NCBI GenBank assembly: GCA_001003475.1
Contig: LCPF01000002.1
Span: 2,190-64,175, forward strand
Source of the DNA: Candidatus Jorgensenbacteria bacterium GW2011_GWA1_48_11
GTDB taxonomy: Bacteria > Patescibacteriota > Minisyncoccia > UBA6257 > GWB1-50-10
Direction: 5' to 3'
Length of the DNA: 61,986 nucleotides
This document shows, one piece after another, positions 17,046-58,003 of the stretch. Position 1 is the stretch's first letter. Every line of letters starts with the position of its first letter. The position numbers were made by a program, and so were the translations under genes. Below the pieces are notes generated by a model, which worked only from the letters and a program-made list of their open reading frames with translations, was not told where the DNA came from and did not search any database.

Positions 17046-17774
17046 CTATGGAATGCTGTCGATGTTCTTGCTGATGTTGGAAACCTTTCTTTTTTGGTGA
17101 AAATCGATGGCAAGAAGGATGATTATCCAGACGCCGATTATCACATAGAAAACGGCCCCGCCCGACGAGCCGGGACTGCCTGCGACCGCGAGCGCGTAAT
17201 CCTTGAAGAGATAGACGAGGATTCCGGCGATTGCGTCCCAGATTATCGTGGAAAAGAGAGCGGCGAAAAAGAAAGTTTTAAAAGCCATTCGCATGATTCC
17301 GGCGGCGGTGTCGGTAAGGGCGGCCGCGCTCGGGAGCCAGTAGCTAAGGAAAATAGCGAGAACACCCCGTTTCGTGACCTTTTCGCGCTCGTTCTCGATC
17401 GCTCCTTTGAGCCCGAACCGGACCAGCAACCGATACCAGCCGTATTTCCCAAGGGCATAGTTGATGAGATGTGCGATGAAGAGCCCGACAGTGGCGACAG
17501 ACACCACAATTGCCGCTTCAAACGGCGATTTTGTCAGGATGACGCTGAGGAAGATCACGAAGATGCCGGGGAAATATCCTCCCACGAGGAGCATGCCTTC
17601 GACGACAGCGCTTATGAGCAGGGCCGGGAGGCCGTAGCGCGCGAACCACTGCCTGGCGATTTCTTCAAGTTCATTTGTCGGCGGCAAATTGAAAACATCC
17701 CAAATTATCCAGAGGGACCACGAGAGCAATAAAAGCAGAAGCGGGACAGAGAGTAATTTAAGGTAATGTTTCAT
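17046..17774 (-). CDS. DedA/VTT-domain membrane protein
   Basis: VEG..YFPG, INYALGKYG, AAGIMRM motifs. Confidence 0.75.
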   Translation of the reverse strand: MKHYLKLLSVPLLLLLLSWSLWIIWDVFNLPPTNELEEIARQWFARYGLPALLISAVVEGMLLVGGYFPGIFVIFLSVILTKSPFEAAIVVSVATVGLFIAHLINYALGKYGWYRLLVRFGLKGAIENEREKVTKRGVLAIFLSYWLPSAAALTDTAAGIMRMAFKTFFFAALFSTIIWDAIAGILVYLFKDYALAVAGSPGSSGGAVFYVIIGVWIIILLAIDFHQKRKVSNISKNIDSIP

Positions 17775-17852
17775 GGGCGAAGCCGAACGATGTTGTAACT
17801 TGTTGGGAGGGAAGGAATCGAACTTTCATTCACAGCTTCAAAGGCTGGTGTC

Positions 17853-17910
17853 TCCCTAGGCATCGTTTTACGATGCCGGGACCCCGGTCATCTCAGTGAT
17901 GACTTAGGGG
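17853..17910 (-). mobile_element. 58-bp non-autonomous double-hairpin element in tRNA D-loop
   Basis: CCCC-TA-AGTCATC-ACTGA-GATGACC-GGGG-TCCC-GGCATCGT-AAA-ACGATGCC-TA-GGGA. Confidence 0.7.
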
Positions 17911-17916
17911 CTATCC

Positions 17917-18264
17917 CTAGGTATTTTTATGCTTTTTGCCATCCAAAGCTGCGGGACTTGGATTCGAACCAAGATACCCAGCTCCAAAGGCTGGTGTCCT
18001 ACCATTAGACGATCCCGCAGCTTTGGATACCAATTTCTTTTTAAGTTTACCACCCCACGGGGTGTATTTTAAAGTCCATTCTTTCTTCCTAGCTTCCGAT
18101 AAGGATTTGAATGATTCGTTGTAGACTAAAGTCAACGGTCTGCGATTTTTTGTGCTTTGCATTTTGCCTGCGTTGTGCGTTTCAACCCTCTTGTTTAAAT
18201 CATCGCAGGTGCCAACATATAACTTGCCGTCCTTATCGCTTTTTAATATATACAAATACGGCAT
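17917..18264 (-). CDS. Small GIY-YIG nuclease (115 aa) whose C-terminus is translated through the tRNA
   Basis: YLYILKS..LYVG..NKR..HN..ST..RRPLTLVY.E...ARKKE; start taken at MPYLY. Confidence 0.9.
   Translation of the reverse strand: MPYLYILKSDKDGKLYVGTCDDLNKRVETHNAGKMQSTKNRRPLTLVYNESFKSLSEARKKEWTLKYTPWGGKLKKKLVSKAAGSSNGRTPAFGAGYLGSNPSPAALDGKKHKNT
17949..18019 (-). tRNA. tRNA-Gln(UUG), intact cloverleaf, CCA not encoded
   Basis: TGCGGGA acceptor, GTCTAATGGTAGGAC D-arm, CCAGC-CTTTGGA-GCTGG anticodon arm, CTTGG-TTCGAAT-CCAAG T-arm. Confidence 0.93.
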
Positions 18265-18378
18265 AAAAATACCGGGACCCCGGTCGCTTTGCGACCTAGG
18301 GGCCGTTAGACGACCCGGCAAAACGTTTTTTAACGTCAAATCTTAATCGAATCGCACAATATAGTATATAATTAGAAC

Positions 18379-19605
18379 GTGCGCAATATCAAATCTCTTA
18401 AAACCACCCTTGACGAGCAATTGGCCAGGGCGGCTAATCAAATTTCCATTATCGAGCTCGTTGATCTGATTGTGGAATTCGCCTACGTTTCCCGGGCTTC
18501 GGACATCCATTTGGAACCGGCCGACGACAAGGTGATGGCCCGTTTGCGGATCGACGGCATTTTGCACGACGCTTTTTTCTTCGCCAAAGAACTGCAGGAC
18601 GAGGTCGTGAGCCGCATCAAAGTCCTCTCCGGCCTCAAAACCGATATTCACCATTCGCCCCAGGACGGCCGTTTCAAGGCCAAAATGGAAGGCGGCCGGG
18701 AAATCGATATCCGGGTTTCGATCGCGCCGACCTATTACGGCGAAAACGTGGTGATGAGGATTCTGGCCGAAGCGGCCCAGATTTTCACGCTGGACGACCT
18801 GGGTTTCTCGAAAGACCAGCTCGCGGCCGTCCACAAGGCCATTTTAAAGCCCTACGGCATGATCCTTGCGAACGGCCCGACCGGCTCCGGCAAGTCAACG
18901 ACGCTTTACGCCATGATCAAGAAACTCAATACCAAGGAAGTCTCGATCATTACGGTCGAAGACCCGATCGAGTATTCCATTCCGGGTATCACCCAGATGC
19001 AGGTGAATGTCCAGGCTGGCCTGACCTTTGCCTCGGGCTTGCGCTCGATCCTGCGGCAGGATCCGAACATTATCATGGTCGGCGAGATCCGCGATTCGGA
19101 AACCGCCAACATCGCCGTGAACGCCGCCCTGACCGGCCACTTGATGCTTTCCACTTTGCACACGAACGACGCCGCCACCACTTTTCCGCGCTTGATCGAT
19201 ATGGGCGTGCCGCCCTTCCTCGTCGCCTCGACCGTGAACGTCGTCATTGCCCAAAGATTGGTGCGGGTGGTGTGCCCCTCCTGCCGCAAGGCGCGGACCC
19301 TTAGCATCGCCGAGCTGAAGAGCCTGTCCTCGATCGCCAAGGAGCTTCTGGTGGACAAGGTTTACACCGTGGGGCCGGGCTGCAATGACTGCGACCATAC
19401 CGGTTACAAGAGCCGGATCGGCATCCACGAAGTTCTCGAGATCAACGACGATATCCGCTCATTGATCGTGGGCCGGGCCGACGCCAACCAGATCAAACAG
19501 CAGGCCGTCAAGAACGGGATGAAAACAATGATCGAAGACGGCGTCCTGAAGGCCCATGCGGGCGTGACGACGATCGAAGAGATCCTCCGGATCATTTATG
19601 AATGA
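18379..19605 (+). CDS. pilB: Type IV pilus assembly ATPase (PilB/GspE)
   Basis: ASDIHLEP, PQDGRF, GPTGSGKSTTLY, EDPIE, LRQDPN, GHLMLSTLHTN, CxxC pairs. Confidence 0.93.
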   Translation: MRNIKSLKTTLDEQLARAANQISIIELVDLIVEFAYVSRASDIHLEPADDKVMARLRIDGILHDAFFFAKELQDEVVSRIKVLSGLKTDIHHSPQDGRFKAKMEGGREIDIRVSIAPTYYGENVVMRILAEAAQIFTLDDLGFSKDQLAAVHKAILKPYGMILANGPTGSGKSTTLYAMIKKLNTKEVSIITVEDPIEYSIPGITQMQVNVQAGLTFASGLRSILRQDPNIIMVGEIRDSETANIAVNAALTGHLMLSTLHTNDAATTFPRLIDMGVPPFLVASTVNVVIAQRLVRVVCPSCRKARTLSIAELKSLSSIAKELLVDKVYTVGPGCNDCDHTGYKSRIGIHEVLEINDDIRSLIVGRADANQIKQQAVKNGMKTMIEDGVLKAHAGVTTIEEILRIIYE

Positions 19606-57566: not shown

Positions 57567-57620
57567 CCAGCAAACGAATAAAAAACTAAAAGAAAATCCC
57601 GCTTTAGGCGGGATTTTCTA

Positions 57621-57962
57621 GTAAGTCATAAGCCGGATTCTGTTTAAACGATAATTTATCTGGGCCATTGATTACTCGCAGGCTCAAGCGGCACTCCCTT
57701 GCGGGCACGACCTTGCACTCAGTAAGGATTTAGCCGTTTCATCTCTGCTTTTTTATCCTTATGGCAGAGCTAGACCGACTAGCTTAGGATTGGGTCTTCC
57801 CGGTCTTTTCAAACCGGAACGTTTCTGATCGCACCTCTCGTCTTACGACGGCAGGCTGTTAGCCTGTACTTTTTTATCCGCCTCATCGGCGGAAAGTGTC
57901 CGGACTTTCCTCCCTGTTAGATAGCGCTCACGCGCATCTAATGGGGCTATCGTTTGACTTAC
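57621..57962 (-). ncRNA. rnpB: RNase P RNA
   Basis: GAGGAAAGTCCGG near the 5' end, AACAGAATCCGGCTTA near the 3' end, GTAAGTC/GACTTAC P1 helix, promoter upstream, terminator near 57593-57618. Confidence 0.95.
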
Positions 57963-58003
57963 TTTTGATAGTATAACTTATCATTGATTTTTGTCAAAAG
58001 TTG

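Follow-up and report, generated by a model that had tools for sequence, protein, structure and literature searches.

A GIY-YIG nuclease reading frame running through a tRNA-Gln(UUG) gene within a probable selfish cassette of Candidatus Jorgensenbacteria

The free-standing GIY-YIG homing endonuclease SegB of phage T4 is encoded in a phage tRNA gene cluster, and has been reported to cut inside tRNA genes by recognising a T-loop motif and to drive the inheritance of itself and of the neighbouring tRNA genes (PMC2330249). SegB is the nearest described system to the locus analysed here, and the nearest regulatory analogue is arfA of E. coli, in which RNase III is reported to cut a stem in the 3' part of the open reading frame (ORF), giving a non-stop mRNA that is repressed by transfer-messenger RNA (tmRNA) (PMC3989581). 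In this study, we describe a locus of Candidatus Jorgensenbacteria bacterium GW2011_GWA1_48_11 (assembly GCA_001003475.1, contig LCPF01000002.1, positions 2,190 to 64,175), where a GIY-YIG nuclease frame continues without a stop through a complete tRNA-Gln(UUG) gene, and where ORF and tRNA form one selfish cassette lodged in the remains of a native tRNA-Gln gene. The whole stretch of 61,986 nucleotides that was analysed is called the window; coordinates refer to it unless a contig (C) or a compared locus (L) is named, G numbers denote genomes of relatives, and all features of the locus lie on the minus strand.

The locus shares with SegB an intron-less GIY-YIG gene among tRNA genes, whereas SegB is larger (the cloned fragment measured 687 bp), has proven cleavage activity and lies between intact phage tRNA genes (PMC2330249). 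The gene described here encodes a catalytic domain of about 81 residues alone, belongs to a cellular genome and is known from sequence only; moreover, it sits within a broken tRNA gene, brings a replacement tRNA along and has an ORF that runs through that tRNA. With arfA it has in common a conserved stem over the end of the ORF, where a cut would give a non-stop message and a product of functional length; the arfA stem is a simple hairpin of demonstrated regulation, while at the present locus a whole essential tRNA forms the loop, and cleavage and tagging are predicted (PMC3989581).

Systems in which a tRNA sets the end of an upstream RNA are also comparable, although they are eukaryotic or organellar and the present locus is bacterial. 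In the mitochondrial tRNA punctuation model, cleavage by RNase P at a tRNA forms the 3' end of the upstream RNA. Polyadenylation completes stop codons in mitochondria, while the message left by a cut at the present locus would end in ...AAA GC and could not be completed to a stop. The 3' end of MALAT1 is likewise set by excision of a downstream tRNA-like structure, mascRNA, for which an acceptor stem extended by leader-trailer pairing is reported to be needed for efficient cleavage (PMC8457004). Bacterial group I introns that carry homing endonuclease genes resemble the cassette in that an essential RNA gene keeps its function although a selfish nuclease gene is lodged in it (PMC3984707); no ribozyme was found here, and function is kept by a spare gene copy rather than by splicing. 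Archaeal tRNA genes disrupted by integrating elements also show split tRNA genes and partial duplicates at the element ends, but those elements are of a different kind and are not known to include a nuclease ORF reading through a tRNA (PMC3293823). No published description of such a nuclease-tRNA-Gln cassette was found in a literature search judged by titles and abstract openings, which left most subscription journals uncovered.

The tRNA-Gln(UUG) gene and the nuclease frame

A tRNA-Gln(UUG) was called by ARAGORN at 17948-18019, as the only ARAGORN tRNA in the window, and the Rfam tRNA model matched 17949-18019 with 64.2 bits against a gathering score of 29. The gene (17949-18019) has the cloverleaf, the anticodon UUG, the U1-A72 pair and G73, which are the sequence features of a functional bacterial tRNA-Gln. 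All four tRNA helices were 100% paired in 17 cassette tRNAs, and a 121-nt RNA of the locus folds as a cloverleaf plus helix (-51 kcal/mol, z = -6.97; 0 of 200 shuffles equalled it). The original prediction, made from the letters of the window, of an intact tRNA nested in frame inside a GIY-YIG ORF was thus borne out. The absence of an encoded CCA, which it had also pointed out, is true and usual in this genome, just 9 of the 46 ARAGORN tRNA calls ending in CCA. The source genome measures 691 kb in 8 contigs and is 96% complete; no other tRNA-Gln(UUG) gene was found in these contigs, so that the question raised earlier, whether this is the single gene for the UUG isoacceptor, can be answered with yes at that level of completeness. 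Elsewhere, at C6:8906-9229, ARAGORN called five odd tRNA-like genes arranged head to tail, one with an undetermined anticodon, which could be a repeat array or false calls.

In the six-frame ORF list, the ORF at 17917-18339 is open across the whole tRNA. The ATG at 18264 is the likely nuclease start, giving a frame of 115 codons plus TAG (17917-18264), of which codons 1-81 (18022-18264) encode the GIY-YIG domain and codons 82-115 derive from the tRNA and its trailer. The tRNA itself is translated as AAGSSNGRTPAFGAGYLGSNPSPAA, residues 82-106. Residues 1-66 matched Pfam PF01541 with 48.3 bits against a cut-off of 22.6, which places the protein in the GIY-YIG nuclease superfamily. The conserved motif residues of this superfamily are two tyrosine-containing motifs, an arginine and a glutamate. 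Among 18 aligned homologues, Y5, Y16, G18 and E62 were invariant and R26, H30 and N31 at least 90% conserved, so the predicted protein has these motif residues. The dN/dS ratio (nonsynonymous to synonymous substitution rates) against L101 and L102 was 0.06-0.08 with dS saturated, indicating a nuclease under purifying selection.

The reading of the tRNA as codons needs no adaptation of the tRNA, because, among 22 tRNA-Gln genes that are not part of a read-through cassette, 20 are free of stops in the cassette frame; of the remaining two, one owes its stop to a 1-nt offset in the gene call. The special feature of the read-through is the missing junction stop only. Overlap of the ORF with the tRNA 5' end is a habit across the whole nuclease family, and the frame continues through the tRNA because the gene is packed against it without a junction stop and tRNA-Gln is stop-free in that frame. 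Here the frame ends at a TAG (17917-17919) inside the right inverted repeat of the cassette, ACCTAGGG; in L007, L088 and L063/L115, the stop of the read-through ORF is the TAG where element and 3' fragment meet (after ...KFGGVK), in the D-loop of the downstream fragment. Tails beyond the tRNA vary in length (5-14 residues) and sequence among cassettes, while stop-bearing homologues end at the junction position, many of them at residue ~81-90. In all likelihood the read-through is tolerated as a consequence of the gene being closely packed against a tRNA without stops in that frame.

A helix joining leader and trailer

Two 9-nt arms abut the acceptor stem without a gap at 17941-17949 / 18020-18028, with C(-1) pairing to G73. 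The nine perfect extra pairs proposed in the original prediction are thus present, exactly where it had placed them, and set this tRNA apart from the other 45 tRNAs of the genome, which have 0-3 such pairs. If one G-U pair and one mismatch are allowed, the helix reaches 13 of 14 pairs, 18033-18020 with 17949-17936. From pairing, covariation and fold, the 5' arm was delimited at 18020-18033, where it also encodes the last nuclease-domain codons (L-V-S-K-A), and the 3' arm, which begins at the discriminator G73, at 17936-17949.

Covariation was analysed in 14 cassettes picked for read-through and not for the helix (14 pairs, 196 cells). Leader and trailer were 91.8% paired, compared with 37-55% when the partner was slid by 1-3 columns; two-sided changes occurred in 8 of the 14 pairs, and the covariation score was reached by 0 of 500 shuffles. 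A larger set of 17 rows, three of which were added after their helix was known, agreed with the set of 14. The helix of ~14 bp hence lengthens the acceptor stem to ~21 bp and is kept by compensatory changes; it is a real, selected element. In 12 of 13 tRNA-Gln genes of relatives without an adjoining GIY-YIG gene the helix was absent, the exception being L017, while the cassette tRNAs of L015, L084 and L112 are flanked by it although their ORF has a stop. The helix therefore accompanies the element-borne tRNA and not read-through as such.

A helix with a role at the DNA level and none in RNA, read-through being a neutral by-product, has to be weighed against this. The arms could mark the two inverted termini of a nested tRNA mini-element with hairpin boundaries, or a snap-back repair scar on the palindrome of the acceptor stem. 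Palindromic mini-elements and hairpins do dot these loci, in tRNA fragments, in the tmRNA gene and possibly in the gene for the CCA-adding enzyme, and the tRNA-Gln of L017 is flanked by a helix although no nuclease gene was detectable there. On the other hand, the first pair of the helix is in every case exactly -1/73, stacked coaxially on the acceptor stem, and G-U pairs, which form in RNA and not in DNA, are tolerated in 7 of 14 rows at one helix position. Compensatory changes, moreover, keep the helix while synonymous sites are saturated. We thus judge a purely DNA-level origin to be unlikely; maintenance of the helix at the RNA level is favoured because G-U pairs are used and the synonymous sites of the closest nuclease genes are saturated.

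The closest cassette is L101, with a nuclease 76% identical over the kept columns of the tree described below. Between window positions 17934-18035 and L101 1512-1613, the helix arms are nearly identical and the tRNA body of L101 is clearly different, with the anticodon CUG, which suggests that the tRNA interior was swapped with resident genes and the flanks retained.

The cassette, the broken native gene and the relatives

The cassette spans ~388 bp (17915-18302) by reading of the sequence, and is bounded by the inverted repeats CCCCTAGGT ... ACCTAGGG. Its left end module (18272-18302) consists of CCCCTAGG, a 4-bp hairpin and CCGGGGTCCCGG, and the right inverted repeat ACCTAGGG (17915-17922), an inverted copy of the left end, holds the stop TAG of the ORF. 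On its upstream side lies an 18-nt 5' stub of a tRNA-Gln (18303-18320), which runs from the acceptor strand to the D-loop and matches, at every position, the opening 18 nt of the tRNA-Gln(CUG) gene of this genome (C1:44314). Equivalent stubs precede the nuclease gene in L007, L018, L021, L088, L096, L101 and L102. Downstream, a 57-nt miniature copy of the element (17854-17910) is made up of the ends only (CCCCTAAG, hairpin, CCGGGGTCCCGG, hairpin, CCTAGGG), and it is followed by the dead 3' part of the native tRNA-Gln(UUG) (17804-17857), from the anticodon arm to the 3' strand of the acceptor stem, CCTCCCA.

This 3' fragment gave a partial Rfam tRNA match of 19.6 bits, below the gathering score, and is identical at 39 of 42 nt to the intact tRNA-Gln(UUG) of G016, a relative of the same family, beside which no GIY-YIG gene was detectable in the ~1.2 kb fetched. 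Because the fragment is degenerate yet so similar to the G016 gene, the native tRNA-Gln(UUG) is dead and the copy in the nuclease frame took over; the cassette copy is the only such gene found, since the cassette sits between a 5' stub and the dead native 3' part. L101 and L102 share these cassette ends, which interrupt, in the D-loop, a tRNA-Gln that would otherwise be complete. The clearest case is L102, whose perfect tRNA-Gln(CUG) is split there by the same element with its nuclease gene and a full tRNA-Gln. In the closest tRNA-less homologue, L074, the same hairpin module follows the stop codon. With its terminal inverted repeats, and with shortened copies at other places in the genome, the element has two traits of a miniature inverted-repeat element family.

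Further copies and repeats were observed in this genome and its relatives. The tmRNA gene (C1:139100-139165; L130 ~600-665) holds a miniature copy in opposite orientation (CCCCTAAG, hairpin, CCGGGGTCCCGG, hairpin, CTTAGGG), just before the tag frame, where it has 55 nt against 5 in the Rfam consensus; the gene still scores 101.6 bits. The gene for the CCA-adding enzyme (C1:290300-290350; L131 ~400-450) has ~18 extra in-frame residues, SGSLQATGTPAEGPGADP, compared with a solved homologue. This stretch is encoded by a palindromic sequence that contains CCGGGGTCCCGG, with an order of parts that differs from the canonical copy, and may be an in-frame insertion of a related mini-element. In L101 (1850-2000) two miniature elements of 45 nt each break up the 3' fragment, and L088 (410-640) has two successive 3' tRNA-Gln fragments, each after the same trailer and repeat, in a nested layout. 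Dead tRNA-Gln copies of L007, L015 and L018, which belong to different genera, share an insertion at one and the same position of the D-stem: a perfect GC palindrome of 18 nt, CCTGCCTGCGCAGGCAGG (or a form with TG at its centre).

For a survey of relatives, 40 of them, one per genus, were searched with the locus DNA, and 19 tRNA-Gln loci were scanned with the nuclease domain. A GIY-YIG gene adjoined the tRNA-Gln in 6 of the 19 loci and was missing from 13; with the empty native tRNA-Gln(UUG) of G016, this is the presence/absence polymorphism expected of a homing gene. In L007 and L009 the gene reads into the tRNA in the same frame, and in L015, L018 and L021 it stops 4-7 nt before it. Within the order sample, 330 of 401 genomes gave a GIY-YIG match. 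Among the 150 matches listed, 15 (including this genome) reach at least query residue 100 without a stop and 15 do so with stops, in a match list that is biased to in-frame tRNA-Gln neighbours, as the query included the tail. A full in-frame read-through of tRNA-Gln was found in 12 other genomes of the order (L101, L102, L104-L108, L110, L111, L113, L115 and L116); L103 reaches the contig end, and G037 has a run of N. Two metagenome loci, L088 and L096, also read through. Whether homologues share the read-through had been left to be checked: these 12 genomes carry it across the whole tRNA-Gln in the same frame, while others stop before or inside the tRNA.

In a tally of 97 loci with near-complete domains, taking the best-scoring GIY copy of each locus and excluding partial domains, the frame reads through the whole tRNA in 15, stops inside it in 13 and stops at most 60 nt before it in 13; there is no tRNA within 160 nt downstream in 54, and one locus each meets a contig end or a run of N. 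The tRNA was a tRNA-Gln in every read-through case. Related cassettes that do not read through have their stop either within the tRNA or 1-14 nt ahead of it. A 3-sequence alignment served as query for a wider homologue search; in other phyla, a same-strand tRNA lay within ~150 nt at 22 of 48 loci (13 upstream, 9 downstream or overlapping), and none at 26.

A tree was built from 92 nuclease domains and 79 columns, leaving out L063 and L009 as duplicates and L036, L090 and L058 for their internal stops; for L110 and L112 the best-scoring copy used in the tree and the tally is a second copy, and the central copies were examined separately. The read-through rows fell into 3-4 groups, with which a single origin is also compatible. 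As 79 columns leave a single origin possible, the tree backs neither repeated gain nor exchange of modules. The no-stop junction is kept among nuclease lineages that are 40-77% identical, and the read-through layout is inherited and recurrent.

The pilB-like ATPase gene that flanks the cassette (18379-19605) is also the neighbour of the cassette in L102, L103 and L113, which belong to other families, at 58-64% identity. The nuclease of L113, at its ATPase-adjoining locus, is just 48% identical, which hints that a different nuclease lineage replaced an earlier one at the same site. The source genome also has a paralogous GIY-YIG gene (C1:254025-254260, minus strand; L003) within the tRNA row Ser, nuclease, Glu, Arg, Gly. 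Its TAA stands 1 nt before tRNA-Glu(UUC), and that tRNA-Glu has no extended helix.

Processing of the shared transcript and alternative explanations

A single promoter-like site (TTGATA, 18 nt, TATACT; 18363-18392) was found upstream of the stub and none within the ORF in a consensus scan, the site being a consensus match only (10 of 12 positions). The nuclease gene and the tRNA would be transcribed as one RNA from the old tRNA promoter. In that RNA the helix may act as a processing stalk or clamp for excision of the tRNA from the nuclease message. The size of the ~21-bp helix suits RNase III, and the combined helix is a candidate RNase III site; RNase III may cut it, RNase P may cut at 18020|18019, or both. 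The RNase P RNA, whose presence in this window had been recognised beforehand, is encoded at 57614-57965 on the minus strand (102.5 bits against a gathering score of 100), and departs from the class A model by several insertions and deletions. Genes for RnpA (C1:172118-172357), RNase III (C6:17572-17967), tmRNA, SmpB and the CCA-adding enzyme are also present. Cleavage at the 5' end of the tRNA would give a message that runs out after codon 81/82, the point at which homologues with a stop terminate, so that excision would leave a stop-less nuclease message ending exactly at the natural end of the domain. Ribosomes stalled on it would be rescued, and the product tagged, by tmRNA-SmpB. The low nuclease output expected from this would be constitutive, as a side effect of tRNA maturation, and not a regulated switch. 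That release of the tRNA leaves a non-stop nuclease message is plausible, as it follows from the layout. Taken as a whole, a selfish nuclease-tRNA cassette that replaced the native gene, with helix-aided excision yielding a non-stop message, is the best explanation and in our view probable by a modest measure.

Several observations weigh against this explanation. The stub belongs to the CUG type, whereas the 3' fragment derives from the native UUG gene, with a mutual fit of 5 of 7 acceptor pairs; this mismatch therefore points to a history beyond one simple insertion. No target-site duplication was seen at the cassette, whose ends overlap the D-loop TAGG so that the boundaries are ambiguous, and whose mobility is putative. 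The profile matches cover the catalytic domain alone, the remaining frame is tRNA-encoded and a DNA-binding domain is absent. Characterised homing enzymes such as I-TevI and the Seg enzymes join a DNA-binding domain to the catalytic domain. There is no obvious Shine-Dalgarno-like sequence before the ATG at 18264, and a terminator-like site (18271-18284, minus strand), formed by the CCGGGGTCCCGG module and a T-run, lies directly before that ATG. A stop occurs just before the helix in L112 and L084 and inside a helix arm in L015, and since these close relatives carry stops, the non-stop state is dispensable. In a check on the idea that the helix clamps the tRNA against decoy fragments, shuffling of the trailer arm in silico lowered the pairing probability of the acceptor stem from 0.98 to 0.82 in the window and from 0.99 to 0.53 in L101, and hardly changed it in L102 and L106, a modest and uneven effect. 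RNase Z was not found in the genome with TIGR02651 (best match 21.8 bits against a cut-off of 292.95), while 37 of the 46 tRNA genes have no encoded CCA. Finally, leader pairing that extends the acceptor stem is reported to inhibit the catalytic step of E. coli RNase P (PMC9433436), and the helix may for this reason hinder release of the tRNA. In MALAT1, an extended acceptor stem is reported to promote 3'-end formation by RNase P (PMC8457004), so that with one report of inhibition and one of promotion the helix may either hinder or favour RNase P.

A more far-reaching version holds that addictive homing cassettes, widespread in ultra-small bacteria, break tRNA-Gln genes and supply a replacement, with a tRNA-built, ArfA-like gate setting the nuclease dose. 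Each maturation of a tRNA would destroy one nuclease message and leave a non-stop mRNA, and the dose would be the balance of processing by RNase P and RNase III, translation through the helix and tmRNA capacity. We regard this version as doubtful.

Closely related, and a little less probable still, is the regulated switch put forward in the original prediction, taken here in an ArfA-like form, in which the helix delays RNase P and RNase III, intact messages are translated and nuclease expression is tied to the state of the cell; a cut message would give active nuclease of the right size only if trans-translation is saturated or tRNA processing slow. The layout is that of the ArfA type, with a conserved stem spanning the last part of the ORF and with tmRNA and SmpB encoded, and arfA itself provides the precedent (PMC3989581). 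Since the 5' arm of the helix is coding, ribosomes must melt it, and cutting would end the protein exactly at the natural C-terminus of the domain. Retention of the no-stop junction in divergent nuclease lineages and the reported slowing of bacterial RNase P by leader pairing (PMC9433436) would also fit a switch. However, the sister cassettes with stops (L015, L084 and L112) bear the same helix, and the tree cannot separate repeated retention from single inheritance.

The 115-residue fusion might instead be a functional protein, to which the Gly/Ser- and Lys-rich tail contributes an activity, for instance DNA binding. In its favour, 15 distinct loci have an open frame, the ends encoded by the trailer are frequently basic and the domain alone is without a DNA-binding module. 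The tail is, however, dictated by the tRNA, ordinary tRNA-Gln genes encoding the same peptide, and the part after the tRNA varies in both length and sequence while many homologues do without any tail; we consider a functional fusion highly improbable. It is hardly credible that the whole insert is an intron of a pre-tRNA made of stub plus fragment, or an assembly or sequencing artefact or chance mutation: stub and fragment of L102 would jointly form a perfect tRNA-Gln, but those of the window misfit, the fragment is degenerate, no intron family matched at E-values up to 10, and the same junction recurs in independent assemblies, on which ground chance mutation or error, the refutation foreseen in the original prediction, was rejected. 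A search of 17700-18400 for a group I intron or other known RNA gave only the tRNA, the partial tRNA and chance-level snoRNA and miRNA matches, and the NCBIfam model of group I intron endonucleases scored 22.7 bits against a cut-off of 56.05, with no ribozyme core detected.

Returning to the selfish cassette, its consequences concern both the cell and the annotation of these genomes. In the latter respect, "GIY-YIG proteins" of 110-120 residues in these genomes contain a tRNA-encoded tail, and the flanking tRNA-like fragments are remnants of dead genes. The covarying leader-trailer helix makes testable how bacterial RNase P and RNase III handle a tRNA with an acceptor helix of ~21 bp. If the proposed processing is true, an essential tRNA and a potentially harmful nuclease would share one transcript, where making the one destroys the other. 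A selfish nuclease gene can, in this manner, occupy an essential RNA gene free of any intron by carrying a spare copy, and because the element carries that spare copy of an essential tRNA gene, the host depends on the element.

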